From Methanobacteriota archaeon (lineage in GTDB: Archaea > Methanobacteriota > Methanobacteria > Methanobacteriales > Methanobacteriaceae): DNA of 23,036 nt. Both the position numbers and the translations under genes were made by a program. The notes under the pieces are model-generated. The model was not told where the DNA came from and made no database searches. It was given only the letters and a program-made list of their open reading frames with translations. Positions 414-23,036 of the stretch are shown here, piece by piece (the first letter of the stretch is position 1; each line of letters begins with the position of its first letter). The stretch is taken from positions 1 through 23,036 of the forward strand of contig CAWBCJ010000022.1 of the NCBI GenBank assembly GCA_963787255.1. The letters are read 5' to 3'.

Positions 414-511
414 CTATAGCGACCTTGTGGCTAAAAATTCGTTTCAGTTACTTATGTGTCTATTTTTGCTTAATTTTTTAAAATAAGCTTGTGTGAGTCT
501 TTATAATTATA
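414..511 (+). repeat. Element copy A: left end CTATAGCGACCTTGTGGCTAAAAA plus core motif TTGTGTGAGTCTTTATAATTATA
   Basis: 414-436 matches 5810-5833, 12797-12819 and 18890-18910. 489-511 matches 3004-3026 and 4709-4731; its first 17 bp match 22761-22777. Confidence 0.9.
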
Positions 512-561
512 ATTATAAATCTATCATGGTTATACATATATAATTGTTTTTATTTAAAGCG

Positions 562-643
562 AAAAACAGCACTAATTCTATGCATAATCTACTGCATTTA
601 TCAATAAAATGATCAAAGATTCGAAATGATGAATTATAGATTA
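562..643 (+). repeat. Dispersed non-coding repeat X, copy 1
   Basis: Ungapped manual alignment with 9742-9823 gives 68/82 identities. Confidence 0.85.
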
Positions 644-789
644 TAGGAATTGGTAAAAAGTTAATTTTTTTAATATGATCATTAGCTTGGAAATTATCCG
701 TTTTGTGAATTATTGTTGGACATTAACAGTGCTACTGCTCTAGCAAAAAACATGTAAATATAAGGGGCTATCAATAACGCATGTAAAAA

Positions 790-1473
790 AATCCCTATTC
801 TATTTCCTGCAATATCTATAACTAAATATAATTCCAATTAATATATACCACATAACAAAGTCAAACCATCCTATTTCTCCCAATTTTATTGAATATTTCC
901 CGGAATCTGAAGGCCGCTCTAATATCATTCTTATTATTGGCCATATTTGCTATTGCAATTTGTATTATCGGATAAATAACAAAGAAATATAAAACTACAA
1001 ATTAAGCCCCAATTCTGTTGCCCCTAAACTTACCATAAAGCAGGCTGATTCCTAACCCTAAAAGTACAGTTCCAACAAGTGGGCGGCCAATTCAAGATTT
1101 AATGTAGATGGAAAACTTGATAATGCAAAAAATAAAGAAAAACAATTAAGAAGTTAAAATAAAAAAGCGATTTCAACTATATTTACTTTAATGCCATTTA
1201 TGAAAATATCACTCAGATACCTTAAATTACTGAGAGATTTCGATACCTGATAGTGATAAATATATTATTTTAAAACTGTATCCATCTACTAAGAATCTAA
1301 TTATAAAATGCAAAAGAATTAAAAGCCATATTAATATAATATCCATAGGATCAAATAAATTAACAATAAAATATATTTGAGTAACTAACGTAATAACCCC
1401 TAAAATTAAAATTTTCTTCCAGTATAAACAGAGGATATCTTATAGAATCTTTCACTATTTCACTGATATTCAC
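790..1473 (-). pseudogene. DUF4013 family membrane protein pseudogene
   Basis: GTG at 1473 with AGGAG RBS (1481-1485). Fragments MNISEIVKDSIRYP, WKKILILG, GYSFKII, IFINGIKV, AIANMANNKNDIRAAFRFREIFNKIG and EIGWFDFVMWYI are split by several frameshifts and stops. Same family as intact 15762-16523. The 3' end is approximate. Confidence 0.8.
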
Positions 1474-1581
1474 ACTTTAACTCCTTAATTCAAATATTTA
1501 ATTTGAGATAACTTCTCACTAAAGCCAATATGTTTACGATTCAGTAAAAACTATTATTTATATTAGTGTAATTTTATTATA

Positions 1582-1935
1582 TTAATTATTAGAAGCTTCT
1601 TTTAATACAAGATCAATTAAACCTCCAAATGCTCCTAATAACCCAAACACAATCAACATAAGACTTTAAACAGAATTATATAGTACTGGAATAATGATTG
1701 TATGGAAACCTTTGCTATTAATCTAACTGTATAAAAATACTATAGTTGCAATAGAAACATAAACTACTAATTATACCATTAATTATCCCTATTTTCATTT
1801 CTTGCAATAAAGCCAGAAACTAAACCAGCAGCAATAATTACGATATACTCTATTGGCGAAGGAGCATGAATAAAAGTTATAAGTAATCCAGCGGTTGAAC
1901 CAATTAATAAAGGATTTAATCAATTTAATTATTTT
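1582..1935 (-). pseudogene. DUF5518-like small membrane protein pseudogene
   Basis: Fragments NPLLIGSTAGLLI, KIGIINGIISS and LMLIVFGLLGAFGGLIDLVLKEASNN* (TAA 1582-1584) resemble the C-terminus of 22302-22679 (LGLLGGAIGVIVKE). Frame-broken; 5' end approximate. Confidence 0.6.
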
Positions 1936-2222
1936 AATTTCTAATTTAGCAGTCGTAAATTGATTTTCTTGATACGTAGTTGATCTATAAAAAAATAATA
2001 TAAAATTAAATCGTGCTTCTGCAGTTACTTTATCCAACTTTTTTTCATCTCTCTAAGCATTAATTCTAATTCATTAATTTTTGCATTATTTAAGGTATCT
2101 ACCCCTTACTGAACAGCATGAAGTGTAAGGTATTTGGAATTAGCTAATTTACTACTTTTAATAGGGAGTCATCTAGTCATTTTTAAAATGCACGTTAAAA
2201 TATTCTTTAGATTCATTTTTTA

Positions 2223-2775: not shown

Positions 2776-2982
2776 ACGATCCGGGTAACATATATGGAAA
2801 TATTAAATAAATTGCTTATTTTTAGCTAATCTGGGATAATTACTAGCAATCAACGAATTTTAAGTCAATAGAGTGCATTTACGAGTTAAAGAAGTTGAAT
2901 TTGGATAAAATAACTGTTTAATTAATTTGATGCTTGTTAAAATAAAAATTTTAATTTTATTTGAAATTTTATTGCTTATTTT

Positions 2983-3281
2983 TGCTTTATTTTTAAAATC
3001 AGTTTGTGTGAGTCTTTATAATTATAGCTTCAAAAATGATACTATATAGTTTTGCATACTGAAAACTGTTTAGAAAATTCGAGAATTCCTAAAATAGGCT
3101 TTAGTATCTTGTATTTTACGTTATTAATAGTTTTAATGTCCGTTTATTTAATTGTCACTATATAAAATAATATTATATTTTATATTGTGTTAAAATTTTC
3201 TCTTTTTAGAACTGTTGTATTTCGCTAAAATTGTATTTTGGTGCTTGTTTTCGTGATTTTGATTTTTTTAGCAAGTTTAAA
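2983..3281 (+). repeat. Element copy B: ~300-bp subterminal region, right end lost
   Basis: Colinear with 4686-4985 and 22739-23036: TGCTTTATTTTTAAA, TTGTGTGAGTCTTTATA, AAAACTGTTT, ATATAAAATA-N6-TATTTTATAT (3160-3185), AAAATTTTCTCTT, TGATTTTGATTTT, AGCAAGTTTAAA. Confidence 0.92.
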
Positions 3282-3681
3282 TAAAGAATATTATAAAAGA
3301 GTTAGTATTCTCCTATTTTTTCTATTTTTTATTTTAGAGTTTTTGGTAGATTGCCTTTTGGGATATACCAAATGGGGCAGAAACATAAACTTCAATAAAA
3401 CCCTATAAAAGATTAACAGAATCTATGGAGTTCTCAAGAGGGAGGGTATGTTGGGCAGATGTGGAGTCGGCTACTTGAGAAGACGGTACTGGACTGAGTT
3501 CTGTATATTTTAAGGTTTTAGGTTACTTATGAGATTATATTTAATTTATCAGTTACTTTTATTATATAATCAGATGATTTAGGGACTAAAAAGAAAACTA
3601 TTTTATACTTAAACTGATTCAAGTGTAAGAAATTATTAAAAAAAAACATAAAATTATAAACATAAACCTATAGGAGATTTT

Positions 3682-4312
3682 ATGAACGCATATTTATATG
3701 TACTAAACACATTGGCAGATTGGGAAATTGGTTATATCACTGCTGAATTGAATAGCGGTAGATATTTAGACAAAACAAAACCGCCTATACAGTTAACTTA
3801 AAATTGGAAACACCATCGAGCCCATAAAAACAATGGGAGGAATTACTATTACTCCAGATGAGAGTATTGATGATATCATCTTTAAGGAAGGTGATTTACT
3901 AATTTTACCTGGAGCAGATACATGGATGGAAAGAGGCAATAATAAAATATTGGATATCGTTTCTGGCATTATAGACAAGAAGGTGATTATTGCAGCAATT
4001 TGCGGAGCACCACGGTCGCTCTGGCAAATAACGGACTATTAGACGATAGAAATCACACCAGCAACGACATGGAATTTTTAAAAATGTTTTGTCCAGAATA
4101 TATTGGAGAGGATTTTTATTTAAATCAATCCGCTGTTACCGATGGTAATTTGATAACAGCTAGGGGTCTTGCCCGCTTGAGAATTCGCATATGAAGTATT
4201 CAAAAGAATTGATGTAATGAAACCGGAAACATTGGAAGCGTGGTATCAATTATATATAACTAATGAATCGAAGTATTTCTATGCCCTAATGGAATCCCTT
4301 AAAGAAGCATAG
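3682..4312 (+). pseudogene. DJ-1/PfpI (class I glutamine amidotransferase-like, YdeA-type) protein with three frameshifts
   Basis: AGGAG RBS, ATG 3682. Segments MNAYLYVLNTLADWEIGYITAELNSG / KTMGGITITPD…LILPGADTW…IAAICGA / ALANNGLLDDRNHTSN…AVTDGNLITA / EFAYEVFKRIDVMKPETLEAWYQLY…KEA* are joined by frameshifts near 3797, 4010 and 4180. Confidence 0.9.
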
Positions 4313-4642
4313 AGGAATTTTTTAAATTTTAATCTGATTGAAATTCTTCGGTATAACTTGCTTCAGCGTTCCTGCAGAACAAACAGGTATAGCTGCTATT
4401 AAATTAACTACCTTAATAGTATTTTTTAGTGAAAAATTACATCATTTTGATATGTGTTACATGGGTTTTAGGCAATGCACATATATAGTATCTGTTGTAT
4501 CATGATTAATTCTAGTTTAAATTATAAGGTTCTTTTTAAAGGATATACAATATAATAAATGTAATTAACCTATTTAATAATGTTGAGGAATATATTTGAT
4601 GTTTATTTTTTTTAATTTGTTTAATGTATTTAAAATTAATTC

Positions 4643-5023
4643 AGTCAATTAATATATATTAAAAATTAATCTTAATTCCTAATAGTGCTTTATTTTTAAA
4701 ATTAGAGCTTGTGTGAGTCTTTATAATTATAGTTTCAGAAATGTTACTATTATAGTTTTTGTATACTTAAAACTGTTTTAGAAAATTAAGAATTTAAAAA
4801 TAGGTTTTATTGGGCTTTGGTTTTGTGTAATAACTGTTCTAATTTGCTTTTATAAGTATCCCTATATAAAATAATATTATATTTTATATTCGAGTTAAAA
4901 TTTTCTCTTTGTAACATATGTTAAATTAGCTAAAACTTTTATTAAGAGCTTATTTTCCTGATCGTGATTTTCTTTTAAGTTTAAAATAATAGCTTATTTA
5001 ATTCTTATAGTGGGTATGGCGAA
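4643..5023 (+). repeat. Element copy C: subterminal region ending in degenerate junction AATTCTTATA-gtggg-TATGGCGAA
   Basis: AGTCAATTAATATATATTAAAAATTA (4643) matches ~5874. 4686-4985 aligns with copies B and L. Palindrome at 4864-4889; junction at 5000-5023. Confidence 0.9.
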
Positions 5024-5165
5024 TAATGTTTCAGGAATATATGAAAAACTATTCTTTTTTTTTATTTAAAATTTTATTTGGAATTAATTTAATCAAAGAA
5101 TATCTCGAAAATTATTATTATAGTTTCAACAAAAATAATATTATAATTATATGGATGTGAAAATC

Positions 5166-5809: not shown

Positions 5810-5999
5810 CTATAGCGACCATGTGGCTAAAAAGAGCGAGTTTAACTACGAAAAAATTATTTAAATTTTGTTTAGTCAATTAATGTATATTAAAAATTAG
5901 TTTTAGTTTTTAAAAATGCTCCATTTCGCCTTATCATGGTGTTTTTGGTGTGATTTTTTTCAGTTAGATTATTAAATAATTTTTTTTAAGTCGTTATAG
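5810..5999 (+). mobile_element. Element copy D: 190-bp cargo-less mini-element with inverted ends CTATAGCGAC…GTCGTTATAG
   Basis: Ends match at 9/10 positions as an inverted repeat. The interior contains pieces of the subterminal region. A new left end TGTAGCGAT (6005-6013) follows across the 6-bp spacer gtgcta (5999-6004). Confidence 0.75.
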
Positions 6000-6127
6000 T
6001 GCTATGTAGCGATCCTAGATGTAAGAGATAGTCGAATTAGCCAAATATTTCTTATGCTGGATATGGTGAAATATAATAAAAATGAATATAAATAAATAAA
6101 AATTGAAAAATGAAGGATATTTAAAAA

Positions 6128-6376
6128 ATGAAAAGGATTACTAAAGAACCTTGGTTCGGTAAAAGGCGTATTGGATGGGGATTCAATCCAATAACTTGGC
6201 AAGGATGGGTACTTACACTAATTTTGATATTAATCCTTCTTCTTGATTCTATGTACTTCTACAAAACCATTCTTTTTGGAATTATTCTTATTGTAGCAAT
6301 AATATGCTATATCGTTGTGGCTTTAATAACTAGTGAATTCCTTAGCTACCCTCAAAATGAAGAAGAAATAATTTAA
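6128..6376 (+). CDS. Small conserved membrane protein (PWFGKRRIGWGFNPITWQGW motif, 2 TM)
   Basis: 82-aa ORF with an aromatic/Gly N-terminal motif and two hydrophobic helices. Confidence 0.8.
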   Translation: MKRITKEPWFGKRRIGWGFNPITWQGWVLTLILILILLLDSMYFYKTILFGIILIVAIICYIVVALITSEFLSYPQNEEEII

Positions 6377-6402
6377 AGGGTTTAATTAAGTATGGCTTAA
6401 GC

Positions 6403-6793
6403 TCTTTATAATTATAAATTTTATTGGGTTCTGCCATATATTCAATATTTATACTCTAAAAGACTCCAATTCTCCCAAATTTTAAAATACATATCCTAAC
6501 ATTAGCTACTTATTTTAAACTACTGTCCCATTTAATGCCTTAAAAAAACTAAAAACTTAAAAATAAGACTATTAAATCCATATTTTTGAATACAAACTGT
6601 TTAGGGTCAGTTTATTTAAGTTGTGATATAAAATAAGTATTATATTTTATATTAAATTGAAAATTTCTCTTTGTAACATATGTTATATTTAGTTAAAGCT
6701 TTTTTAAAGTGCTTATTTTCTTGATTTAGATTTTCTTAACATGTTAAAAATATGGCTGTTTTATGTCGTTATAGATGGGTAACGAAATATTTT
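6403..6793 (+). repeat. Element copy E: variant subterminal region (includes repeat Y, 6425-6494) and right end ATGTCGTTATAG
   Basis: 6626-6774 aligns with copies B and C. Right end at 6763-6774 is followed by GGTAACGAAATATTT. 6425-6494 resembles 10583-10654. Confidence 0.85.
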
Positions 6794-7752: not shown

Positions 7753-8047
7753 TATCAATCACCATTTATTACTATATATTAAATAATTAATAAGTATTGG
7801 TATAAGTATGAATAATTTAGAATATAAAAACTTAATTTAAAAATAATCAAACAGAACCCTTCAAACGCTCCAACTCCAACTGCATCTCAGAAACCACATC
7901 ACACAACTGACTATTCTAATCTTTCAATTCCAGATAATTCATCTTTAATTCTTTATAGTCAGAGAGGTAAATGGATTCTATTATGGATAAAATAGATAAA
8001 ATTAATGAAGTTTTCTTTAACTTTAATCCTGTCACTTATTAGAAAAA

Positions 8048-12417: not shown

Positions 12418-12645
12418 ATTCTTTTATAGTTCATCATATTAATTAAATGAATTGATTTTCTTCTTATATTCCGTTTTTAGGGTTTTACTACATTTTGGGC
12501 ATAAATATATGAATGTGGAGGTGCTGTAAATCTATGTGTAAAATTTAAACTCCCCCCGTAGATATATTAAAGAATTACAAAATTAGCACTTAATACCTTT
12601 ATTATAGCATTTTAAATATTTTAAGCCGGTTTATTTTTTTTGTTA

Positions 12646-12830
12646 TGATATAAAATATATATATTATTTTATATTAAGGTAAAATTACGCCTTATTTAAA
12701 CCTGTAGATCTGGATAAGATTGTTTTTCCATGAGTATTATAATAATTATGATTTCTTTTTTTATCATGTTTTAAATATTAAGTCGTTATAGTTATGTATA
12801 ACGACCATGTGGCTAAAAATAGTCAAATTT
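12646..12830 (+). repeat. Element copy F: subterminal region, perfect junction AAGTCGTTATA-gttatg-TATAACGAC, and next left end CATGTGGCTAAAAATAGTC
   Basis: Perfect 9-bp inverted repeat (12782-12790 / 12797-12805) around a 6-bp spacer. Confidence 0.92.
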
Positions 12831-12971
12831 AATGATATAAAAACTAAACATTAAAAAAGAGATATAAAACTAACTTCTTGTTTGGAATATGGAACTGAAA
12901 AATGAAGATAATGCAAAAATATTGCAAACTGTGGTAAAAATTTAAAAAATAGGGGATCTAAAACCTAAGTT

Positions 12972-13739
12972 TCAAATCAATACTATCAATGGCACGATTA
13001 CGTGCAACACGATATCTGCAGAAAAATGAGATATCATAGCTGATTCTAATCCCTTTTTCCAGTAAAGCCATCCGAATATAATTCCACCAATTGCATTTAA
13101 AATGATTATACGGGCAATTAGTAGTGGTGTCGGTGTAGTTATGGCTAATACTGTTGGTAAATGACCGATACCGAAAATAATCGCTGCTAAAGCGATAGCT
13201 AGCCACATACCTGCGTTTGTTGGTTTTCCTTCTTCTGTTTTTTTGATTTTAAAGATTATCCATGCAACAAGTGTCATTAAAAATAATCGCAATAGAATCT
13301 CTTCGTTTATTCCACCATAGAACGATGCAAGGAAGCCTTGCCATGCTGGAGGATAAATTTGACCTGCAACAGCTATATTTGTTGTAATACCTGCAAGAGA
13401 GAATAAATAATCTAGACCAACTATCAAAGCGCCTGCAATTAACCCTAGTCCAATTGATATTCCAAGTATTGATTTTAAATAACTTTTTACTTCTCTTCCT
13501 TCAAGCCAGCCTTCTAATATTGGAAGACCAAGTCCAACCTTCTTTGCAAGGTTCAATCCAATAAAGATGGCAATTGCAAATATAACTGTATTTTGAATAA
13601 TTGTTGCTGTTAATACAACATAAAGAGGCAAATTTTGCGGTAAACCACCTTGAAGAGTTAAACTGTAGGGAATTATGGTTATTGTTCCAAAGATACTTGC
13701 AATTAGTAAAATTATAAATAGTTTCCAGTTAGTTTTCAT
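12972..13739 (-). CDS. CPBP family intramembrane glutamic endopeptidase (CAAX/Abi)
   Basis: Motifs EEILLR, FGIGHL and SAMISHFSAD; multi-TM. Confidence 0.93.
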   Translation of the reverse strand: MKTNWKLFIILLIASIFGTITIIPYSLTLQGGLPQNLPLYVVLTATIIQNTVIFAIAIFIGLNLAKKVGLGLPILEGWLEGREVKSYLKSILGISIGLGLIAGALIVGLDYLFSLAGITTNIAVAGQIYPPAWQGFLASFYGGINEEILLRLFLMTLVAWIIFKIKKTEEGKPTNAGMWLAIALAAIIFGIGHLPTVLAITTPTPLLIARIIILNAIGGIIFGWLYWKKGLESAMISHFSADIVLHVIVPLIVLI

Positions 13740-13752
13740 ATTTTCACCATTT

Positions 13753-15021
13753 TTACTTTATCCATTGTACAATTGAATCTATTACATCTTTTTCTACATG
13801 GCCTTCAACTGTATACTCTTGTGGAGTTGATTTACCCTCACCTGCTATGAACAAATGGTTCAATTTCGGGAAAAGTTCGAAAGTAGCGTTTTTCTTGTGA
13901 CTAAGAGCGGACTTCCAGCCTTTAAAATCTTTAGATTCCAGAACTTGGTAATCACGTCCGCCTTGAAGAATTAATATGGGTATGGTTAATGTTTTTACAT
14001 CATCTGAAGGTTTATGATCATGTAAATCTTTCCAGTAAGCTGGTGAAATCCCTAAAGGTAAGTCCTTGGAGGGAATATCTTTTAAACTTTCAATATTCTT
14101 TACATGGGCTACTTTCTCTTTTAAAACTTCAAGTTCTGCCTTCTGCTCGTCTGTCATTGTTCCTGCTAGACTGTAAAGGTAAGTAAATTGATCTAAAATT
14201 GTATCTTCTAGAGAACGTGTAATTCCGGCCATGATAATTAATCCGGCTATTTCTGGATCTTGTTTACCGATTCGAGGGGCAAGAGTGGCACCTAAGCTGT
14301 GACCAAGCATAACGACTTTTTTCGGATCTATATCTTTTGTTTGTCGCATTAATTCAATTGCAAGCAGTGCATCGTCTATGACTTCCTCTTTCGCGGTTAA
14401 TTTCTCTATTATTTCTGGAGTAAACTGCTTAGCGTGTATAAATGTTCTTTTATCATATCTTAGCACAGCAATGCCTCTAGAGGCTAAACCCCATGCCAGA
14501 TCACGGAATGTTTTGTTGGGACCTATTGTTTCATCCCTATCATTTGGTCCAGATCCATGTACTAAAACAACTCCTGGAAAAGGACCAGAACCATTAGGTA
14601 CTGTCAAAGTTCCCGGTAATGCCCATTTCCCCTCACCAATAGTCACTTCGGTTTCATGAAAGGTAGATTTGTTAATATAGTCTGGTGCATGATACTCTAT
14701 ATTTGTTGGAATAAAATTCAACCCACTGATTTGTTCCTGTTCGTTAAAAACGACTTGTACATCAATTATATCTCTTTGGAAATCACATCTGATAATAACA
14801 ATCTTGTAACCTTCCATTTCAGTTGTACGTGTGGGATTCATTTGCAGTAGAGTTCCTGCCTCTGCTATTGTATTTACCCATGTTTCTTGTAATTTAGCCG
14901 CATCTAAGGCGATTTTCATCTGATCATCGAACATACTAGTAGCAGATGTAAAATCAGCCTTCAGTAGTAGATCAACAAATTTTTGTGCTTTTTCTTTTAA
15001 ATCTTCAAATGATGAATTCAT
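13753..15021 (-). CDS. Alpha/beta hydrolase with N-terminal DUF3887-like domain
   Basis: [18 protein letters not shown] nucleophile elbow, QGGRDYQV and LNHLF (Ser-Asp-His triad); GAGGT RBS. Confidence 0.92.
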
Positions 15022-15065
15022 AATTTAACCTCAATACTATGCATATTAAACTATTCATAACACAT

Positions 15066-15119
15066 AATATTTGCTAACTATAATATATAGTTATCGGAAT
15101 ATTTAGTTATCGGAATATT
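15066..15119. promoter_or_regulatory. Probable operator in the divergent promoter: TAGTTATCGGAATATT x2 plus an inverted variant
   Basis: Perfect tandem 16-mers at 15088-15103 and 15104-15119. 15066-15080 reads TAGTTAGCAAATATT on the minus strand. Lies between the divergent hydrolase and MarR genes. Confidence 0.65.
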
Positions 15120-15148
15120 TATATCAAGAAAACGATAGAAAACTAACT

Positions 15149-15580
15149 ATGAATAATGATAATATAAGGATAGTTACGGCTCTTTTTGATGAAATAAACA
15201 ATAAACTGAGGAAAACAAGTCAAGAAAACCTATTAAAAATTTATAAGAATTTAACTATAGCTGAGGCAAGTGCAATTTATGCAATAGGGCCTGATGAGCC
15301 TAAAACTATGAAACAAATTGCAGAAACATTGGGTGTTGCAGTGAGTACTCCAACAAGAACCATAGATAGGCTTTTAGAAAAAGGGTTCGTAAATAGGACT
15401 GTAGGAGAAAAAGATCGCAGACAACTTTTAATTGAATTAACTCCTAAAGGTAAAGAATTACTGAAGGATATTGACAAAGAAAATTTGGAAATAACCAGAA
15501 AAATGTTAAAAGGTCTTTCAGATGAAGAAATAGAAACATTTAAAAAAATACTGTCTAAAATAAGTGAAAATATCGAATAA
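15149..15580 (+). CDS. MarR family transcriptional regulator
   Basis: TMKQIAETLGVAVSTPTRTIDRLLEKGFVNR…DRRQLLIELTPKG winged-helix signature. Confidence 0.95.
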   Translation: MNNDNIRIVTALFDEINNKLRKTSQENLLKIYKNLTIAEASAIYAIGPDEPKTMKQIAETLGVAVSTPTRTIDRLLEKGFVNRTVGEKDRRQLLIELTPKGKELLKDIDKENLEITRKMLKGLSDEEIETFKKILSKISENIE

Positions 15581-15615
15581 ATTTTTACCTAACCATAAAA
15601 ATCATTTAGTTTTTT

Positions 15616-15663
15616 AAGTCGTTATAGCGCCCTATAGTGATATTGTGACTAAAATAGTCGATT
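15616..15663 (+). repeat. Element junction G: AAGTCGTTATA-gcgccc-TATAGTGAT-ATTGTGACTAAAATAGTCG
   Basis: Colinear with 12780-12830; 6-bp spacer differs. Confidence 0.88.
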
Positions 15664-15761
15664 TATATGAAATAGGAATAATAAATTAATTTATTCTTTA
15701 TATAACGTTTTAATGACATGTACACGAGCTTTTAGTGATGTTTAAAATACATTAATCTTAA

Positions 15762-16523
15762 TTAAGATTCTCTATAAATTAGTGCAATAAATCTTGAATC
15801 AAGCATAATAATATATGGGGCAATTAATTCTTCTGCAATCACAAAACCAAATATATTAGATTTTCCAAGTACTCCTATTAATAATGGACCTCCAATTATC
15901 ACAATGCCTAGAATCACGATGAGGTATCCTATGAACAACTTTTTTAACCCTATTTTTTTAATTTTTCTAAATATTTCATGAAATCTAAATGCTTCTTTAA
16001 AGGCTCCGCCTTTAAAAGCCATATGAGGTATAGCTACTGTAAAAAACATGTCTAAAAGAAATCCTAAAACAAATGCAACAATTATAATGGAAATAGCAAC
16101 TTCTACGCTTACTGCAGGCATCTCAAACTTTATTCTGGAGAAATTATAGTCTAAAACATAAATAAGAATGATAAGTGGCACTGAAAAATACAGTAATATA
16201 AGAACTGTTTCGTTAATACCGTGTTTAAACATGTTAGTAAGATTATTTAACTTTGGAGGCTCTTCAATGCCTATAATACTTTTTTCAATTATTCTAAAGG
16301 CATAACCTGCTTCAAAGAATAATAAAATTATGGCAACTAAAATAAGCAAAATAACTAATTTTAAACTATTATCACCAAAAGCAGGATACAAATATGTATA
16401 GAACTGGTTATAATATCTTAATATTGAAGTCGTTATTAAAATCATTAAACCTAGCAAAAGTAGCTGTTTTATTCCAGAAAATGGATATTTAGCAGCATCA
16501 TACAGAATTTTACTTATTTTCAT
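15762..16523 (-). CDS. DUF4013 family membrane protein
   Basis: MKISKILYDAAKYPFS, GYAFRII, MFKHGI and AIPHMA…FKEAFRFHEIFRKIKKIG. Confidence 0.88.
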   Translation of the reverse strand: MKISKILYDAAKYPFSGIKQLLLLGLMILITTSILRYYNQFYTYLYPAFGDNSLKLVILLILVAIILLFFEAGYAFRIIEKSIIGIEEPPKLNNLTNMFKHGINETVLILLYFSVPLIILIYVLDYNFSRIKFEMPAVSVEVAISIIIVAFVLGFLLDMFFTVAIPHMAFKGGAFKEAFRFHEIFRKIKKIGLKKLFIGYLIVILGIVIIGGPLLIGVLGKSNIFGFVIAEELIAPYIIMLDSRFIALIYRES

Positions 16524-16668
16524 GTTATACTTTCTATTAATTCTAAAATATTTAAATTAATTGTAACTCTTTTAATCCATTAAAAAGGAAATATACCCCT
16601 ATTATGATAATTAAGCCTGCTGTTAAGTATTGTTCACTTTTTGGAATCCATCTACTTAGCTTTAAAGG

Positions 16669-16805
16669 AATATTATATTTTATATTGGGTTGAAACTTTC
16701 TCTACTTAAAACAAGTAAATTCTGGTTAAATCGCCTAATCATAGTTGTTTTCGCAATTTTGATTTTCTTAACAAGTTTGAAATAGAGTTATTTGAGTCGT
16801 TATAG
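16669..16805 (+). repeat. Element copy H: distal subterminal region and right end GAGTCGTTATAG
   Basis: AATATTATATTTTATATT…TTTTGATTTTCTTAACAAGTTT…GTCGTTATAG aligns with copies C and E. Confidence 0.88.
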
Positions 16806-17064: not shown

Positions 17065-17171
17065 AAAGAGAAGACAAGTAATGCTTTCTAGGGAATAGAA
17101 GCTCCCTTATCCTATAAAAAAAATATTTAATTAAAATCTAATTTTATTTATGATAATTTATTTCTATGAAA

Positions 17172-17387: not shown

Positions 17388-17514
17388 ATTGCTCAACTCC
17401 ATTAATTTAATCTTTTATTAATTGCTAAGAATATCTCTAAAACTAAAATATTTCCAATCTATATTTATTATACATCACATTATAAGTGCACTATTATTTT
17501 TTTTCAATTTATAA

Positions 17515-17580
17515 TATAATGACCGGCTAAATATATGTCGAGAATAACGAAATATTTCTTTATAGCGCTATTATTACGGA
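17515..17580 (+). repeat. Element left-end variant I with 36-bp block identical to 18913-18948
   Basis: TATAATGACC-GGCTAAA, then ATATGTCGAGAATAACGAAATATTTCTTTATAGCGC (17533-17568). Confidence 0.9.
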
Positions 17581-17658
17581 TTTTTAAGTATACTACTTTT
17601 TAATAAGAATTATTATATACTATCATAACCATAGTGGCTTAAAAGGGAAGAATTTCAA

Positions 17659-18078
17659 ATGAAATATAATTCTAAAAGATACAAAAAGGGAAATATAGTG
17701 CAAATTTGTATCGATAATGAACTAATTGAAAAAGAGATTATAGAAGCGCGTTATGATTTAGAATCTGCGGAGAATTCTATTACTGCGAGGAATTATAAAT
17801 GGGCCATAATTCAAAGTTATTATTCTATGTTCCATGCTTTTAGAGGACTCCTTTTTAGCAGAGGCTATAAAGAAAAAAGCCATTCAGGTCTTAAATTTGC
17901 AATTAAAACTTTATTTGTAAATTATGGGGTTATAAGTGATGATATTTTCTTAGATTTTGATTTTGCTATGAAAGCAAGAGAAATGGCAGACTATAGTTAT
18001 ATTTATAATGAAAAAATTGCATTGAACATGCTTGAATCAAATAAAAAGTTAATTGGTGAGATAGAAAATTTGCTTTAA
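17659..18078 (+). CDS. HEPN domain protein (MNT-HEPN type, RxxxxY variant)
   Basis: ARYDLESAE…WAIIQSYYSMFHAFRGLL…KSHSGL…AREMADY. Confidence 0.9.
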   Translation: MKYNSKRYKKGNIVQICIDNELIEKEIIEARYDLESAENSITARNYKWAIIQSYYSMFHAFRGLLFSRGYKEKSHSGLKFAIKTLFVNYGVISDDIFLDFDFAMKAREMADYSYIYNEKIALNMLESNKKLIGEIENLL

Positions 18079-18146
18079 GATGAAAAGCAATGAAAAGAAT
18101 TATTACATTCTTAAAAATAGTTTATTTAATTTTTTTTTTGATTATT

Positions 18147-18207
18147 CATGGTGTTTTAGACGTGATTTTATTTTCTTAATAAGTTTAAAGATAGCATTTT
18201 AAGTCGT
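18147..18207 (+). repeat. Element copy J: terminal 60 bp and degenerate right end AAGTCGT
   Basis: CATGGTGTTTT…GTGATTTTATTTTCTTAATAAGTTTAAA…TTTTAAGTCGT aligns with 5936-5998 and 16740-16805. Confidence 0.75.
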
Positions 18208-18340
18208 ATCATAATTGCGTTAAAAGAAATAAAAATTTAAAAAGTGTTATTCGGGATATAAATCTCTTAAAGCATCTCCTAAATAGATATGACCATAATC
18301 CACTTCTTTAAGTGTAGACCATAAAGACCACCATCATTTC

Positions 18341-18817: not shown

Positions 18818-18889
18818 AACTACTCCTTTAATACGAAGATCAAATTATTGGATTTTTCCATTACTATTAATTTGATTTTCATACTAAAA

Positions 18890-18960
18890 TATAGCGACCA
18901 TGTGGCTAAAGAATATGTCGAGAATAACGAAATATTTCTTTATAGCGCAATATGACGAAT
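18890..18960 (+). repeat. Element left end K plus 36-bp block and nested site TTCTTTATA-gcgcaa-TATGACGAA
   Basis: TATAGCGACCATGTGGCTAAA is identical to 5811-5831. 18913-18948 is identical to 17533-17568. Confidence 0.92.
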
Positions 18961-18990
18961 TAATTTATAAAAATTAAAATAATATGTATT

Positions 18991-19170
18991 CTATTCTTTT
19001 AAGGTCCAGTAGCACCTCTTAGGAGAATAAATAGTTTCATCTTTTTTGAGTTCTTTCATGATTTTATCAACTTCTTTTTTATCTACGCCAGAGATTTGAC
19101 TGATTTTAGTGGCATTTAAAGGTTCTTCAGAGCCTTTGAAAGCTTTAATTACTTTTTCTGTATCATTCAT
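18991..19170 (-). CDS. 59-aa winged-HTH protein (SPKRCYW-type; below ORF-track cutoff)
   Basis: MNDTEKVIKAFKGSEEPLNATKISQISGVDKKEVDKIMKELKKDETIYSPKRCYWTLKE*; GGTGA RBS. Confidence 0.85.
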   Translation of the reverse strand: MNDTEKVIKAFKGSEEPLNATKISQISGVDKKEVDKIMKELKKDETIYSPKRCYWTLKE

Positions 19171-19546
19171 GATATCACCATACTTGAATTACATTTAAAT
19201 CCATATAATTTGTTATGGTAACAGTTCAAAACTAGTATCACTAAGAATCGCAAAAAAAATAGTAGTCCATTAAATCTTCATAGTTGCGTATGGCGATAAA
19301 ATCCCTAAATAGAAAAGAGTGATGATAATTACGATATATTTGCAACTCAAAAGTGCAGGAGTTAAAGCAGTATTCTTTGCCATATTATTTATTCATAAGG
19401 GCTCATGCACCTAAACTCCTTATTTTGTTTTTGCAGAATTTTTGAAAATTTTATATAACTAATAATAAAATAGATTAGGATATAGATTATTTAATAGAAT
19501 ATCTAATGATGTTAAATTACTTTCAGAAGCTCAAGGGGATTAATAA

Positions 19547-19666
19547 ATGTTAGTGTTGTGGACTTTTTTCCATGGAGGTCCAGGAGGGATTTATGCATTA
19601 ATAATCTTTATAGTTGTCCTAATTATATTAGTCATAGCTCAAATAAAAGGACGGTTATTTGAATAA
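19547..19666 (+). CDS. Putative 39-aa single-TM microprotein
   Basis: MLVLWTFFHGGPGGIYALIIFIVVLIILVIAQIKGRLFE*; AGGGGA upstream. Confidence 0.5.
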   Translation: MLVLWTFFHGGPGGIYALIIFIVVLIILVIAQIKGRLFE

Positions 19667-19797
19667 GACCTTAAAACTAAAATATTATAATGGCTTGGAT
19701 TTGCATGAGTTAAAAATATTTTTTCCATTTATCTCTTCTATAAATTCCCCATACACTCTTTAAATTTCATTTTATTGAAAAACTTCATTATATCGTT

Positions 19798-19917
19798 CTA
19801 TAACGATTTAATGAACTACTATTTTTAACTTGTTAAGAAAATTAAAATCAGGGAATGTTGGAACCTGTACTATTATTTAGCATAGTATGAACAAGCTAAA
19901 ATTAAGCTTTTTAGCCA
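19798..19917 (-). repeat. Element copy M in reverse orientation
   Basis: Minus strand reads TGGCTAAAAAG…TGATTTTAATTTTCTTAACAAGTTAAAAATAG…AAATCGTTATAG. Confidence 0.8.
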
Positions 19918-20025
19918 ATTAATTAATTTTTTTTCTTTTTTTCTTTTTTAAATACATCATTTTATATAGTATCAAAAATAAAAAGTCATTTAAGCCTTTT
20001 TTGGCTATATTTAGGACGTGATTAA

Positions 20026-20250
20026 ATGTTTGGAAATAATAATAGAAATAATAATAGAGAAAGTTCATCTCCTTTAAACGAAGGACAAGAATATGATGTT
20101 AAAATTGAAGATATGGGAAGAGATGGAGACGGAATTGCTAAAATTGAAGGTTTCGTAGTTTTTGTATCTGGAGCAAAAGTGGGCGATGAAGTTAAAATCA
20201 GAATTACTTCAACAAGAAGAAACTTCGCTTTTGCAGACATCGTAGAATAG
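20026..20250 (+). CDS. Single TRAM domain protein (archaeal RNA chaperone/cold-shock type)
   Basis: [46 protein letters not shown]…FAFADIVE. Confidence 0.95.
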
Positions 20251-20708
20251 TTTAAGTTAATTTTTAATGCTCATTATCTATGTTAATGCTTTAAATTATT
20301 ATTGACGATTATATTAAAGGTTTTTATTATAATTAAGATATTTTTAATCATTAAAACTAGTCATGAGCTTTTTAAAATTTAATTTTCATTTAAATTTATC
20401 TATTTTTTTTATTTTTTTTAAATTCAGTAATTAAATTTAATTAATTTTTATTGATTATATGAATTTTAGTTAAAAGTAATTCAAAAATTTTATGATCATC
20501 TGGTTGAGTTTGGAGTGTGTTCTACTTTTTATTTTACTATTCCAGTTAGAAATGAAGATGGTAGCTAAATTTTACTCTTAATTTACCTTATTTTTTCAAT
20601 TAAACCGTTCTTTTTGAATATTATCTTTAATAATAATATAAATATTGAACAATTTTATTTTCTGGGCATGAAAAGAATATCAATATTAATATGCCAATAT
20701 AAATTTCA

Positions 20709-21458
20709 ATGGTTAACCATAAAGTTTTCTCAGCAAAAGATAATAAAAGTTTCATAAAAACTACATCCTTCTATGAATTGTATTCTATATTGAAAACATT
20801 AAAAACATCTAAAGGACGTTTTGTACTTGTTTTAGGTGCGCCGGGCACTGGTAAATCTGCTAACATATATCAGACACTTTCTCTACTTGATCTGGACGTT
20901 TATGATGCTTTTTTATTTATAGATACTGATTCAAAACCTCAAGACGTATACAAAATTTTATGGGATACTCTTAAGGAGGATATGGGGGTTAAATCCAGAA
21001 AAGAAATTTATAAAAAGGCTGGAGAATATGATTTGATTCTCTTTGCTGATCCTTTCCTTGATTCAGAATACATTGACCGTGATAAAGTGGGTTTAGGGCT
21101 TTGGACTGAAGAAAATGGTCCAAGTACGTTTCCATTCTATTTTAAAGTGTTATTTGAATATATTAAACATTATATGGATTTGAAAAATGTTAATGTCGTT
21201 GCTCAGACATCGTGGGTATTGAAGTTTCGGGGAGTTCGGTATGATATTCTTACCGATTTCAATTTTCTATCAAAAATTTTGGTTTTTTTATTGAAAAAAT
21301 TATTTGAAGTGGTTTTGATATCATATACTAAAGAAGAAATGATTAAAATTGTTAGAAGTCGTCCTGGTGCTGGTAATGATGAAAAAATTAAAAAATGTAT
21401 AAAAAAATACGGTAACAGGCCACGTTTTATCTTTGAAGCTTTGGATAAAGAAGAATGA
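20709..21458 (+). CDS. Hypothetical P-loop NTPase-like protein
   Basis: FVLVLGAPGTGKS Walker A; candidate Walker B LILFAD. Confidence 0.8.
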   Translation: MVNHKVFSAKDNKSFIKTTSFYELYSILKTLKTSKGRFVLVLGAPGTGKSANIYQTLSLLDLDVYDAFLFIDTDSKPQDVYKILWDTLKEDMGVKSRKEIYKKAGEYDLILFADPFLDSEYIDRDKVGLGLWTEENGPSTFPFYFKVLFEYIKHYMDLKNVNVVAQTSWVLKFRGVRYDILTDFNFLSKILVFLLKKLFEVVLISYTKEEMIKIVRSRPGAGNDEKIKKCIKKYGNRPRFIFEALDKEE

Positions 21459-21840
21459 TTAAAAAATTTTCCTAAAGGGTTAAAAATAGTTGCATTTTAA
21501 GTTTTATTTCTAAAGTTTCATCAAATCTTTTGCTGAACAAACTGTTTTTCTTGGAGGTATGGATAAAAAAAATCTAATGGATTTTTAATTTTTAGATGAT
21601 CGTGCCATTTTATGAAGTCTTTTCTAGGAAACAAGTAAGTTATTAGTTCTTTGGAATATTTATGGCCGGAATGCTAGTATATTTTCATTCATTTTAATAG
21701 TTATTAATAATTTTGTTATTGATCATAAGATATATTTGATATGATGTTTAAATACTGTAGTGAAATAAGTTGAAATGACAACTTAAAAAAAAAATTGAGT
21801 ATTGTATGAATTAATTTATAAAAAAAAGAGGTTGATCAAT

Positions 21841-22017
21841 ATGTGGAGTAAACACATGGGTGGAATGAGTATGATGAATGAAAAAATGATGGAAATGATG
21901 AGTAAAGAAGATATGATGATGATGTATGCTATGAAAATGGATGAGAAAATAGCTATGTTAGAGCTTAAACTAGATTATATGAAAAAAATGCGTGATATGT
22001 TAAAATCTAAAATGTAA
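21841..22017 (+). CDS. Methionine-rich 58-aa protein
   Basis: GAGGTTGA RBS before ATG 21841; 20 of 58 residues are Met. Confidence 0.75.
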   Translation: MWSKHMGGMSMMNEKMMEMMSKEDMMMMYAMKMDEKIAMLELKLDYMKKMRDMLKSKM

Positions 22018-22301
22018 GATTCAATAAAGCTGATAGACTCCTAATTGAGTTTATTAATGCCCAATTTTTTTTTAAAGTTAGATTAGATAAAAGAAAATAC
22101 AGAACCGAAAACAATTAAATTTATTGGCAGAAGAAACTTAGCCATACCCCCTTTTTTGCTTTAATAGCCATTGAAATAGCATTCATTTCTCCAAACATCA
22201 GTAATTATATCTTATTTGCTATTATTTGCAATTAAATCCAAATAAGCATTTATCCTGAATTATAAAAACAATAATTAAAAAGGAGGATACAAAAGTCTAC
22301 A

Positions 22302-22679
22302 TTATTCTTTGACAATAACTCCAATGGCCCCTCCTAATAATCCTAAAACAAGGCTTATGACTATTGATAATTGAATGATGATATATCCGGTGATTAAGGT
22401 ATTGCCGGCTATTGTCCCTATTATGGCACTTATATCTCCAAAGCCCAGAATGGATAATAAACCTATTATTAAACCGCCAATTAATCCCGAAATGGCCCCT
22501 ACAACCATCCCATCTTTTTCATCCATTTTTTCATAATCTTCATATCCTTTGCTAAGGTAAGATGCTAAGAACCCTCCACTAAGCGGGCCTAAAAATAAGA
22601 GAGGGAAGAAAATTAATGATAAGACAATAGTTAAAGCAGTATTAATTAGAGCACTTAGTCCTATAATTTTCCAGTCCAT
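22302..22679 (-). CDS. DUF5518 family membrane protein
   Basis: MDWKIIG…GPLSGGFLASYL…DGMVVGAISGLIGG…LGLLGGAIG. Confidence 0.88.
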   Translation of the reverse strand: MDWKIIGLSALINTALTIVLSLIFFPLLFLGPLSGGFLASYLSKGYEDYEKMDEKDGMVVGAISGLIGGLIIGLLSILGFGDISAIIGTIAGNTLITGYIIIQLSIVISLVLGLLGGAIGVIVKE

Positions 22680-22738
22680 TTAATCAACTCAAATAAAAGT
22701 TTATAAGTATCTTTAAATTTTTTTTATTCCTTTTAAAT

Positions 22739-23036
22739 TGCTTTATTTTTAAATTAAGGTTTGTGTGAGTCTTTATATATTATAGTTTCAAAAAATGTTA
22801 CTATTATAGTTTTTGTATACTTAAAACTGCTTTAAAAAATTAAGAATTTAAAACTAGGTTTTATTAAACAGTATTTTAACATATGAAACTTCTATGATCT
22901 GCTTATTATATGAAATTAATATTTATATTGAGTTGAAAATTTCTCCTTGTAAAAATTGTTATCTTTTGGTTAATATTGCTGTTTAATGCTTATTTTTATG
23001 ATTTTGATTTTATTAGCAAGTTAAAAAAAAATAGGG
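22739..23036 (+). repeat. Element copy L: subterminal region running off the window end
   Basis: Colinear with 4686-4990 and 2983-3281. Confidence 0.92.

Follow-up and report, generated by a model that had tools for sequence, protein, structure and literature searches.

The window, as we call the whole stretch of 23,036 nucleotides that was analysed, is the entire contig C22 and carries an array of junctions in a single orientation, each made of a right arm, a variable 6-bp spacer and a left end (Table 1). The explanation that we favor, at about even probability, is that this contig represents an accretion island built from integrative elements and from derivatives that arose from them by deletion, which in this genome would now be non-autonomous. 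The original prediction had proposed stacked non-autonomous cassettes mobilised by a recombinase encoded elsewhere; the inverted termini and the arrays stood, whereas the arrays themselves turned out to contain integrase remnants. These remnants, together with the intact integrase islands of sister species, fit an accretion island better than a dedicated cassette platform.

Table 1. Features of the array, with positions in the window
Feature	Position	Strand	Remarks
Junction parts			Right arm AAGTCGTTATA; 6-bp variable spacer; 40-nt left end TATARCGACCWTGTGGCTAAA...
Left end	415..452	+	nhmmer E 6.4e-7; without preceding right arm
Hybrid segment	467..555	+	Subterminal 5' part (..GTGTGAGTC TTTATAATTATA) fused to a copy of the HrcA-wHTH/CBS regulator promoter of C24
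Tyrosine integrase C-terminal remnant (weak)	2040..2207	-	tblastn with C24 fragment, E 0.007, 39% identity
Subterminal region, full-length	2967..3290	+	E 2.5e-69; right arm degenerate
Conserved non-coding segment	3314..3491	.	91.5% to L023 5348-5524, 84% to L022
Subterminal region, full-length	4670..5027	+	E 1.3e-72; followed by degenerate junction AATTCTTATAG TGGG TATGGCGAATAATG
Empty element	5811..5998	+	188 bp: left end, subterminal remnant, right arm
Full core	5988..6015	+	Right arm, GTGCTA, weak left arm; 3 mismatches to consensus
Membrane-protein module	6005..6773	+	ORF 6128-6376; partial subterminal region 6539-6773, right arm 6763-6773
Integrase C-terminal tail remnant (clear)	7850..7966	-	Residues 346-384 of intact G122 integrase; E 1e-8, 67% identity
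Subterminal region, partial, with core and left end	12568..12836	+	Core 12780-12807, left end 12797-12836
Perfect core	12780..12807	+	AAGTCGTTATA GTTATG TATAACGACCA; 0 mismatches, best site
CPBP module	12797..15626	+	CPBP protease, alpha/beta hydrolase, MarR
Core	15616..15668	+	Right arm, GCGCCC, degenerate left end; C9 counterpart 27507 better preserved
DUF4013 module	15633..16804	+	Partial subterminal region 16639-16786, right arm 16794-16804
HEPN module	17515..18212	+	Left end with 5-nt deletion; right end degenerate
Left end	18890..18928	+	22-mer match, nhmmer
Degenerate full core	19270..19297	+	AAATCTTCATA GTTGCG TATGGCGATAA
Inverted right arm and subterminal piece	19798..19848	-	End of TRAM-gene module
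Subterminal region, full-length	22722..23036	+	E 1.1e-74; cut by contig end

With at most one mismatch allowed, the right arm was matched eight times in the window against 0.52 expected (the largest count in shuffled sequence was 3), and six of these matches correspond to the junctions at 5988, 6763, 12780, 15616, 16794 and, inverted, 19799 (predicted at 19798). The remaining two, at 14308 (-) and 16427 (+), lie inside ORFs and look like chance. Two more of the predicted right ends, 5000 and 18201, are degenerate copies, the latter with an intact counterpart in contig C9. Under the same mismatch limit a 22-mer of the left end gave four matches (415, 5811, 12797 and 18890), all on the + strand, where shuffles led us to expect 0.00. 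The other three of the seven left ends originally listed are degenerate yet real: those at 15633 and 17515 have better-preserved counterparts in C9, and a full site has its weak arm at 6005. Beyond the earlier list, junctions were found at 3290 (degenerate) and 19270 (a degenerate full site), and the contig ends inside a copy of the subterminal region. All copies but one had been predicted to share an orientation, and indeed the right arm near 19798 is the only inverted one.

The module termini are imperfect inverted repeats (left TATARCGACC..., right ...GTCGTTATA), which had been expected to be joined across a variable 6-bp spacer. The spacing peaked at exactly this value: counting palindromic sites on both strands, 27 arm pairs of this genome were 6 bp apart against 0-15 at each of 30 other spacings, and at loci of other species the figures were 34 and at most 5. 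A control with the backwards motif gave no peak, with 12 (this genome) and 4 (other species) pairs at 6 bp. The spacers are unlike between junctions (GTTATG, GCGCCC, GTGCTA, GATGGG and GCAGAG). The junction site is a putative tyrosine-recombinase core and not an attC site, the unlikeness to attC being as anticipated.

The modules hold from none to about five accessory genes in 0.2-6 kb, and the orientation of the cargo genes within arrays is mixed. Pfam agreed with the cargo names given from the sequence (an Rce1-like CPBP protease, an alpha/beta hydrolase with DUF3887, MarR, DUF4013 and HEPN), and gave no match for the small membrane-protein ORF. The element described as empty indeed lacks any ORF of 45 aa or more. 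Both ends of the HEPN module have intact counterparts in C9 (29418 and 32255), where the TRAM-gene module has the opposite orientation. Flanks read by eye showed a target-site duplication in none of the six two-ended modules, a result that bears on the idea of transposon relics, cut-and-paste or single-strand, in which MITE-like copies would have the ends as terminal inverted repeats and a transposase elsewhere. The imperfect inverted-repeat termini (TATAGCGAC ... GTCGTTATA) with their sharp outer boundaries, the existence of a 188-bp empty copy and the dispersal of site copies over 10 of the 29 contigs would suit such relics. Besides the missing duplications, they are contradicted by adjoining elements that meet at exactly 6 bp, by a genome with no matches to PF01548 (IS110 transposase) or PF00239 (resolvase) and just one match, of 78 aa, to PF07282 (TnpB/Cas12f-like), and by tyrosine integrases being the only recombinase remnants in the arrays. 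We therefore consider this origin highly improbable.

Junctions had been said to separate whole genes, and they were intergenic in all 47 cases; in fact, an ORF of at least 80 aa overlapped the left end in 0 of 47. The left end has a sharp outer boundary: over 46 copies drawn from 25 sources, the information content is 0.36 bits at position 0 and 1.17 bits at position 1, is maximal at positions 1-21 and fades by about position 40. On each side, neighboring genes were in the opposite orientation in 24 instances and in the same one in 22. This intergenic location without an orientation link to genes argues against a promoter, terminator or UTR role.

The left end is distributed throughout the genus. 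Allowing two mismatches, a 21-mer was found in 17 of 20 other sampled Methanobacterium species genomes and, among 180 genomes representing 26 further genera of its family, in one of three genomes of one genus and in 0 of 177 from the remaining 25; the hits form same-orientation clusters, and the backwards 21-mer gave 2 hits across the 201 genomes. Exact matches numbered eight among 185,579 species genomes, seven of them in records titled Methanobacterium, Methanobacteriaceae or Methanobacteriota. The eighth is a chance match within a bacterial coding sequence. Comparable arrays are present in two single-contig genomes (G085 and G185), which rules out an assembly artefact.

A conserved non-coding region ahead of the right ends, also foreseen, is real: this subterminal region of about 330 nt precedes many right arms, and nhmmer found it 16 times in the genome, including 6 times in the window, always on the + strand of the contig concerned. 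The degenerate junction that follows the copy at 4670 recurs at C25 297339. In the genus the region is present in just 7 of 23 genomes, and most left ends of other species have no right arm, a point that we count against the accretion reading; the three parts are thus not an obligate unit. The hybrid segment is 95% identical to C24 11534-11597 and 93% to C24 15091-15178. The non-coding segment at 3314, which gave no folding signal, is located about 135 nt before the right arm in the sister species G150 and inside the island in another, G122.

It may be asked whether these repeats are element ends at all, rather than small-RNA genes or sites bound by a regulator or by a protein that organises the chromosome. 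Such roles would agree with the conservation of the left end across species, sometimes at what appear to be orthologous positions (G057 and G178 share the flanking sequences around it), and with the TATA-box-like sequence at the start of the subterminal region. We find them very doubtful, given that orientation is unrelated to neighboring genes, that RNAalifold returned no consensus structure of the subterminal region on either strand (12 full-length copies, 2 species), that Rfam had no match in the window, and that the sites cluster in variable accessory-gene regions with integrase remnants.

The clearer of the two integrase remnants of the window belongs to the same family as two fragments in C24 and one in C25 (296998-297239), the last having a palindromic core on one side and, on the other, part of the subterminal region together with a right arm; window 1986-2090, which overlaps the weaker remnant, matches C24 12311-12415 at 83%. 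All the fragments are C-terminal and truncated at differing residues. The window contains no intact cognate recombinase, and no intact copy of the candidate integrase was found in the genome (an assembly 95% complete), which counts against the accretion reading. On the other hand, in the sister species G122 and G150 an intact integrase of 376-384 aa, with PF00589 in both and PF16795 added in G122, adjoins a helicase-like protein of 668-676 aa. The two integrase-helicase regions are 78% alike over 3.4 kb and have a right arm of the same type distally. Intact integrase genes do lie in islands with a right arm of this kind. No left end was found in these G122 and G150 elements, and this too weighs against accretion. 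An integrase or its remnant is located at most 5 kb from one conserved regulator gene, beside arrays, in 7 of the 23 genus genomes. As the integrated region of G150 and G122 is bordered by copies of about 90 nt of the promoter of this gene, the integrase may use that site and not the 11-6-11 core.

Cargo differences had been expected to break at the spacers. Homology with other species often stops at the module ends. Alignment of the window with other species' loci gave 118 HSP ends. A junction boundary lay no more than 10 bp from 14 of them, where 1.6 were expected, and no more than 25 bp from 28, where 3.8 were expected; this enrichment is partly due to the repeated subterminal region and is based on a boundary list of our own choice. 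Cross-species homology of the CPBP module begins at 12836 and ends, at MarR, at 15613-15616; other blocks span 16816-17552 and 18221-18915, and homology of the wHTH block shared with C25 145423-145739 ends exactly at the 19270 right arm. Of the 6-8 breakpoints read in the paralogous arrays of C22, C9 and C18, about three fall at an arm boundary and none could be placed inside the 6-bp spacer. Between C22 and C9, a 9.3-kb difference starts at the MarR stop codon, a 2.1-kb difference ends 65 bp ahead of a right arm, and the inverted TRAM block terminates on one side in a short inverted repeat of unrelated sequence; C22 and C18 are 99.3% identical and their sole indel, of 159 bp, has no module ends. 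Breakpoints thus fit the module ends in part only.

Those many breaks away from cores would be expected if the arrays were frozen relics, in which whole elements inserted serially at hot spots such as the HrcA-wHTH/CBS promoter through another att site. The ends would then be inherited internal or terminal element sequence, the modules leftovers of deletion, and recombination at the spacer would never occur. The promoter copies bordering the G150 and G122 region point in this direction, as do the subterminal/promoter hybrids (at window 467-555, C24 15091 and C9 12288) and an integrase left only as C-terminal fragments cut at different residues; moreover, tandem integration at one locus and loss of the integrase gene are known for archaeal mobile elements, according to PMC8371274. 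Decay alone does not account for an exact 6-bp spacing with unrelated spacers in several species, and the sharp outer boundary of the left end, the empty element with both ends and the frequent stop of cross-species cargo homology at the arms are also left without explanation. In addition, some left ends are found in arrays distant from the regulator locus, e.g. G122:C1. We regard frozen relics as possible, although rather unlikely.

In the accretion island that we favor, two termini would form an 11-6-11 core of the tyrosine-recombinase-dimer type wherever modules abut, and presumably also in an excised circle. Strand exchange would take place at the borders of the 6-bp spacer and, since the spacer varies freely between junctions, would probably be independent of spacer homology, as in coupling sequences of the Tn916 type. 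For a circle with a joined core, the target would be a junction already present or a poorer match to one, and insertions of this kind would give rise to tandem stacks in the same orientation with half-sites at the edges. Blocks would be lost or relocated when two junctions recombine with each other. Neither an excised circle nor an empty site was seen, which counts against this reading. We infer in this way the position of the crossover, the circular form and any present mobility of a module. Most likely, the recombinase is an integrase of about 380 aa encoded by the elements themselves, presumably the one that sister species still have intact in related elements. The subterminal region would be an accessory DNA region of the arm type. 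Since nothing but C-terminal remnants of this integrase is left here, the genome's modules would now be non-autonomous or frozen.

A different enzyme is conceivable, namely XerA acting on the 11-6-11 cores as on dif, with the modules behaving like pdif modules or Xer-exploiting elements and the subterminal region being accessory as in the plasmid sites cer and psi, which have an accessory region on one side of the core. The 11-6-11 layout with near-palindromic arms, a conserved region likewise on one side of the core only and the lack of an internal recombinase gene in most arrays are in line with this proposal. Of the 23 genus genomes, 22 have PF00589 matches of XerA strength (E ~1e-45 to 1e-49), whereas the best match in G164 has only 2.6e-13. 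The XerA of P. abyssi needs no partner protein to recombine dif plasmids (PMC2958812). The best dif candidate of the genome, at C25:230185, reads ATCAGATATAA TGGAAA TTATATCTAAA, with 2 mismatches to P. abyssi dif against 4 for the next best site, and similar sites with TGGAAW-type spacers exist in other genus genomes (3 of 23 at one mismatch, a looser search being noisy). Its arms (AGATATAA) and those of the modules are unlike at most positions, which makes XerA unlikely, and the comparison with Xer modules drawn in the original prediction fails on this point. Furthermore, the left end is restricted to one genus while XerA-like genes are widespread, and all the sites point the same way, unlike those of pdif modules, which have inverted sites on their flanks. 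Our estimate for this alternative is accordingly low.

A full-text literature search, covering the main text of articles, found no printed description of a Methanobacterium module array. In the sections of the archaeal tandem-element literature at hand (PMC8371274) we met no 11-6-11 joint, no genus-wide 40-nt end and no arrays of one-gene modules in Methanobacterium.

Among the closest known systems, integrons and CALINs, including archaeal integrons (PMC9668308), consist of small accessory-gene units between recombination sites, often with no integrase nearby, and integron cassettes generally share one orientation, with attC sites that form hairpins and an IntI distinguished by an additional domain. 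The arrays described here are similarly split into small accessory units, but their cargo orientation is mixed, their site is a duplex-type core that is conserved in sequence and has a 40-nt end, and no IntI accompanies them. The pdif/Xer modules of Acinetobacter plasmids, with small cargo, 28-bp 11-6-11 sites, variable spacers and a recombinase acting in trans, resemble ours in being small and bounded by such sites; they differ in that our sites are unlike the host dif candidate and in one orientation, with integrase remnants of another family in the arrays. In Streptococcus thermophilus, islands with ICESt1 and ICESt3 grow by site-specific insertion beside a resident element, and cis-mobilizable derivatives that have lost the integrase retain their att sites in direct orientation; growth by adjacent insertion and such derivatives would be common to both systems, but the ICEs have att sites in direct repeat at the end of a tRNA or gene, where we find an 11-6-11 joint of inverted termini. 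The tycheposons of Prochlorococcus are reportedly tyrosine-recombinase elements that carry cargo and, together with satellites lacking an integrase, form stacks in genomic islands much as here; theirs are said to be bacterial and located at tRNA genes, with partial tRNA repeats at the flanks. Archaeal tandem elements (PMC8371274) would share with our arrays the integration of several elements at one locus, the loss of the integrase and the exchange of modules between tandem elements. Finally, elements of the Tn916/CTnDOT type have imperfect inverted ends, a joint with a short variable spacer and no target-site duplications, and the Tn916 integrase does not need homology of the coupling sequences and forms heteroduplexes (PMC5812530); differing spacers would likewise imply recombination without spacer homology. 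The modules of this archaeal array are tandem units of 0.2-6 kb devoid of Int/Xis and transfer genes, and by analogy a coupling-sequence mechanism might operate on them.

At the junctions of the array the right arm, AAGTCGTTATA, is followed by six variable bases and then by the left arm, TATARCGACCA, the two arms being mutually inverted repeats; the left arm extends into a 40-nt left end with the consensus TATARCGACCWTGTGGCTAAAnATAGTCGAGTTTAACGAA. Both kinds of end had been proposed from the sequence alone and both are real: the 22-nt left-end motif occurred four times in the window at up to one mismatch (0.00 expected), and the 11-nt right arm eight times (0.52 expected), two of these eight copies lying inside ORFs and probably being due to chance. 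The strongest single number came from the distance between the arms. In the source genome, G000, 27 arm pairs were found at a spacing of 6 bp against 0-15 at any other spacing (0 to 30 tested), and in loci of other species the count was 34 against at most 5 at other spacings, reversed motifs giving no peak. The spacer sequence was different at every junction and the spacing was fixed at 6 bp. Cores of this build, inverted repeats around a spacer of constant 6-bp length, are the hallmark of tyrosine recombinases, and 11-bp arms set 6 bp apart are the arrangement seen in Xer/dif-type sites.

Full sites, those carrying both arms, are listed in the table together with the other features discussed here; the remaining junctions of the window combine one good arm with one weak arm, and lone right arms have, 5-6 bases further on, sequences that weakly resemble a left arm (TAACGAAAT, TTTAAGAAGG and TATGGCGAAT, for example). 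The gene assignments of the cargo were borne out by Pfam, and the small unit described as empty indeed has both ends and no gene. The alternative that these are IS or MITE copies (DDE or HUH) with target-site duplications found no support, as none of the six two-ended modules (0/6) showed a target-site duplication when their flanks were read, and the genome contained no match to PF01548 (IS110 transposase family) or PF00239 (resolvase family) and one 78-aa match to PF07282 (TnpB/Cas12f-like family).

Positions of junctions, recombinase genes and remnants, and cargo features
Feature	Contig or locus	Position	Remark
Full sites	window	5988, 12780 (perfect), 15616, 19270 (degenerate)	
Empty two-ended unit	window	5811-5998	188 bp
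Regulator promoter copy joined at TTTATAATTATA to subterminal start	window	467-555	hybrid
Same	C24	11534-11597	
Same	C24	15091-15178	hybrid (15091)
Same	C9	12247-12337	hybrid (12288)
Near-perfect palindromic site	C25	296820	
Candidate dif	C25 (L056)	230185-230212	
Intact tyrosine recombinase, 378-382 aa	C18; L018	64804-65937; 6804-7940	
Integrase C-terminal remnants	C24		two
Integrase C-terminal remnant	C25	296998-297239	
Integrase C-terminal remnant	window	7850-7966	E 1e-8
Integrase C-terminal remnant	window	2040-2207	weak, E 0.007
SIR2-like and 928-aa genes	L022 (G122)	13150-17062	
Non-coding segment	window	3314-3491	175 nt
DJ-1/PfpI-family fragments	window	3643-4321	short ORFs 3833-4042, 4000-4194
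Intact DJ-1/PfpI-family gene	L017	3890-4516	208 aa
Broken GYD-domain gene	window	5152-5397	four in-frame stops
Intact GYD-domain gene	L055 (C25)	789-1088	99 aa; Pfam GYD, E 2e-19
MFS transporter gene	window	10819-12417	
High-G+C reading frames	C17	1-900	

The first T of TATA marks a sudden onset of conservation in the left end, which then declines towards the inside across some 40 nt, as expected at the terminus of a unit that recombines. None of 47 left ends was overlapped by an ORF of at least 80 aa, the genes flanking 46 left ends were divided into 24 in opposite and 22 in the same orientation on each side, and the modules of the window carry genes on both strands; roles as promoter, terminator or leader therefore do not fit, since left ends never lie in genes and their neighbours point either way. 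The conserved region noticed before the right ends was likewise confirmed as a subterminal region of up to 330 nt that precedes many right arms, with 16 copies in the genome, six of them in the window, in a single orientation per contig. A structured RNA was considered and set aside, as RNAalifold predicted no pairs on either strand in 12 copies and Rfam, searched at gathering thresholds, gave no match in the window. No tRNA was found in the window. The subterminal region is instead taken to be protein-binding DNA.

The subterminal region starts with ...GTGTGAGTC TTTATAATTATA G..., and the same 12 bases occur in the promoter of the gene encoding a regulator with HrcA-wHTH and CBS domains. Three hybrids in which the left part of the subterminal region is joined to the right part of this promoter are present in the genome, in the window and on contigs C24 and C9, so that the join between promoter and subterminal region looks like a second recombination junction. 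In two other Methanobacterium genomes, G150 and G122, the integrated region as a whole lies between copies of roughly 90 nt of this promoter, implying that the integrase may use the promoter site; the 11-6-11 core may then be part of a second recombination layer.

The regulator gene is present in all genomes of the genus (23/23), it borders arrays in G000 (on C24), G085, G107, G164 and G178, and in seven of the 23 genomes it has an integrase, whole or as a remnant, no more than 5 kb away. Intact array-linked integrases of 384 and 376 aa were found in G122 and G150, respectively, next to a 668-676-aa protein without Pfam or PHROG match and without match in plasmid or phage collections; its placement in the protein Atlas near DEAD/ResIII helicases of phages and other elements is only a lead to a helicase-like function. 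The two elements are 78% alike over 3.4 kb and have a right arm of the same type at the distal side. Only the right arm was found in these islands, with neither a left end in them nor a left arm beside the 3' end of the integrase genes, and no convincing direct repeats other than the promoter copies flank the G122 element. Five C-terminal fragments of this integrase family were detected in G000. The fragment on C25 has a palindromic core on one side and, on the other, a subterminal piece carrying a right arm, and looks like a deletion derivative of an autonomous element. A split by integration of the SSV type would leave the N- and C-terminal parts of the gene on the two flanks of the element; no N-terminal fragment was detected at E <0.05, although N-terminal parts may be too diverged for detection. 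These data tie this integrase family, the third considered, to the arrays, and its assignment as the enzyme is made with only moderate confidence because of the possible use of the promoter site. In G122, the interval from the intact integrase to the regulator gene encodes two proteins that may be defence cargo of that element, one SIR2-like (387 aa, Pfam SIR2_2) and one of 928 aa without known family.

Two other tyrosine recombinases were weighed among the four PF00589 matches of the genome, which correspond to a XerA-like gene (C26), a 382-aa integrase (C18) and fragments in C24 and C17. The P. abyssi dif sequence given in the methods of PMC2958812 was used for a scan, which returned one outstanding site on C25, ATCAGATATAA TGGAAA TTATATCTAAA, with two mismatches (four in the next best site). 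By a strict pattern this candidate dif occurs in 3/23 genomes of the genus, and near-identical sites (up to one mismatch) are present in at least two besides G000; with a loose pattern the controls were nearly as frequent, which precluded counting. As the best dif candidate differs from the module core at most arm positions, XerA is unlikely to be the recombinase of the modules. The intact C18 integrase is not adjacent to arrays, and its neighbourhood (PAS sensor, integrase, ABC transporter) is kept in two species, G000 and G057. It has relatives in 147 of 200 family genomes and 24 of 27 genera, including orthologues of 72-83% identity in several genera; with such conserved synteny and so wide a presence, its co-occurrence with arrays was uninformative, and the enzyme looks domesticated. 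Immediately ahead of the fragment in C17, the reading frames are long, overlap one another and are high in G+C, in contrast to the remainder of the genome; this contig end may be chimeric or foreign.

A search of other Methanobacteriales had been proposed, and it revealed a genus-wide left end that is nearly absent from the rest of the family: with two mismatches allowed, it was found in 17/20 other genomes of Methanobacterium, in one of three genomes of one other genus and in none of 177 genomes of the remaining 25 family genera. Among 185,579 species genomes the main motif had eight exact matches, seven in records titled Methanobacterium, Methanobacteriaceae or Methanobacteriota and the eighth, by chance, inside a bacterial coding sequence. 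Left ends usually form same-orientation clusters of 3-7 within 2-20 kb, and in other species most have no right arm before them; full right-6-left sites do exist there in local variants (for example ACTTCATTATA ACATAA TATAGCAACC... in G122), and several species also have near-perfect palindromes, ACTTCGTTATA-N6-TATAACGAAGT. The distribution of the subterminal region is more restricted (7/23 genomes of the genus, one of them with a 40-kb array in a single-contig genome). Viral contigs gave no match to two patterns, and no small circular contig was found in the pattern scans of viral and metagenome contigs. The metagenome scan returned 18 contigs, of which about eight carried true left ends; each was a single copy, and almost all came from short contigs, one match (L036) being on a 1.1-Mb contig; no module comparison was obtained among the 18.

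The original prediction placed the gain and loss of cargo exactly at the 6-bp spacers. The breakpoints agree with this only in part and speak against a clean cassette arrangement: about three of the 6-8 breakpoints read between C22, C9 and C18, the related arrays of G000 (mutual identity 92-99%), touch an arm boundary, but none could be placed inside a spacer. The 9.3 kb by which C9 exceeds C22 begin at the MarR stop codon and end where a right arm starts; another difference between the arrays, of 2.1 kb, begins with one right arm and stops 65 bp short of the next; and a TRAM block is inverted between arrays, its right arm coinciding exactly with one end of the inversion and an unrelated inverted repeat of 9-10 bp lying at the other. 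Positions 1-4897 of C18 are 99.3% identical to 17336-22234 of the window, and the sole indel between them (159 bp) has no module ends. The source assembly comprises 2.47 Mb in 29 contigs (completeness 95%, contamination 4.6%), C22, to which the window corresponds in full, having a G+C content of 29% and a right end that falls within a repeat; given that contamination, the stretches shared by C9, C18 and C22 are either real paralogous islands or a strain mix. In comparisons of the window with other species, 14 of 118 HSP ends lay within 10 bp of a junction (1.6 expected) and 28 within 25 bp (3.8 expected), an enrichment partly due to the repeat itself and measured against a junction list of our own choosing. 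Cargo homology also ended at junctions for CPBP (from 12836), MarR (to 15613-15616) and the blocks 16816-17552 and 18221-18915, and a wHTH block common to the window and C25 stops exactly at the right arm.

Several remnants and acquisitions were observed in the window. The fragments of a DJ-1/PfpI-family gene have 82% DNA identity to an intact gene of another species, and the broken GYD-domain gene corresponds to an intact copy on C25, where the same degenerate junction precedes it. Around the MFS transporter gene the G+C content is 42-44%, against a contig average of 29%, which suggests recent acquisition; a 77%-identical copy is present in the G122 array. A non-coding segment with a higher G+C content than the adjoining sequence shows 91.5% and 84% identity to segments within the islands of the two species with intact integrases, and has neither an Rfam match nor a folding signal (z-scores 0.22 and -0.87).

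The site family is a genuine feature, of recombination type, that most sampled species of the genus share, its activity and enzyme being putative. It is possible, even though we regard it as rather doubtful, that Methanobacterium has a gene-capture system of its own, apart from integrons, in which modules would be excised as circles and re-inserted at any resident junction by a trans-acting tyrosine integrase without spacer homology. Modules would then range down to the empty unit, one-gene modules would be shuffled, inverted and exchanged between islands and species, and directionality would be set by the subterminal region (330 nt) and the left end (40 nt) in the role of arm sites. Such a system would be an archaeal counterpart of cassette and pdif-module traffic on a different site architecture. 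To our knowledge, little is known about the gain and loss of accessory genes in methanogens, and the archaeal integrons we know of are rare and found only in metagenome-assembled genomes. Here an easily recognised recombination-type site marks variable islands in nearly all sampled species of one genus, with cargo of the niche-fitness kind (transporters, regulators, hydrolases, a HEPN-domain protein and small membrane proteins). Were the sites active, gene flow in Methanobacterium could be followed through them directly, the genus, poor in genetic tools, would gain a candidate site-specific one, and homology-independent tyrosine recombination could be put to the test in archaea; as relics, they would still delimit islands precisely and help to date insertion events.

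No description of this site family or of such Methanobacterium arrays was found in the freely accessible full texts searched. Integron attC sites are long imperfect hairpins with RYYYAAC ... GTTRRRY cores, their cassettes are generally in one orientation and an IntI integrase with an IntI-specific domain is encoded beside attI. The junctions studied here lack such cores, as had been noted, and the orientation of their cargo is mixed, in contrast to the generally single orientation of cassettes in integrons and CALINs (PMC9668308); thus, the array is not an integron. Xer/dif (pdif) modules share the 11-6-11 layout but resemble the host dif, a likeness absent here. The variation of the spacer among sites points to exchange that requires no homology there, as PMC5812530 describes for the Tn916 integrase. 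Tn916-like elements also share variable short spacers at their ends and the lack of target duplication; they carry the integrase between the ends, where the arrays of G000 show only remnants and the islands of G122 and G150 an intact gene with a right arm but no left end, and they pass through a circular intermediate with joined ends. Tandem integration with loss of the integrase has already been reported for archaeal elements (PMC8371274). In its working, the system is most like coupling-sequence tyrosine-recombinase elements and tandem-accretion islands that leave integrase-less derivatives.
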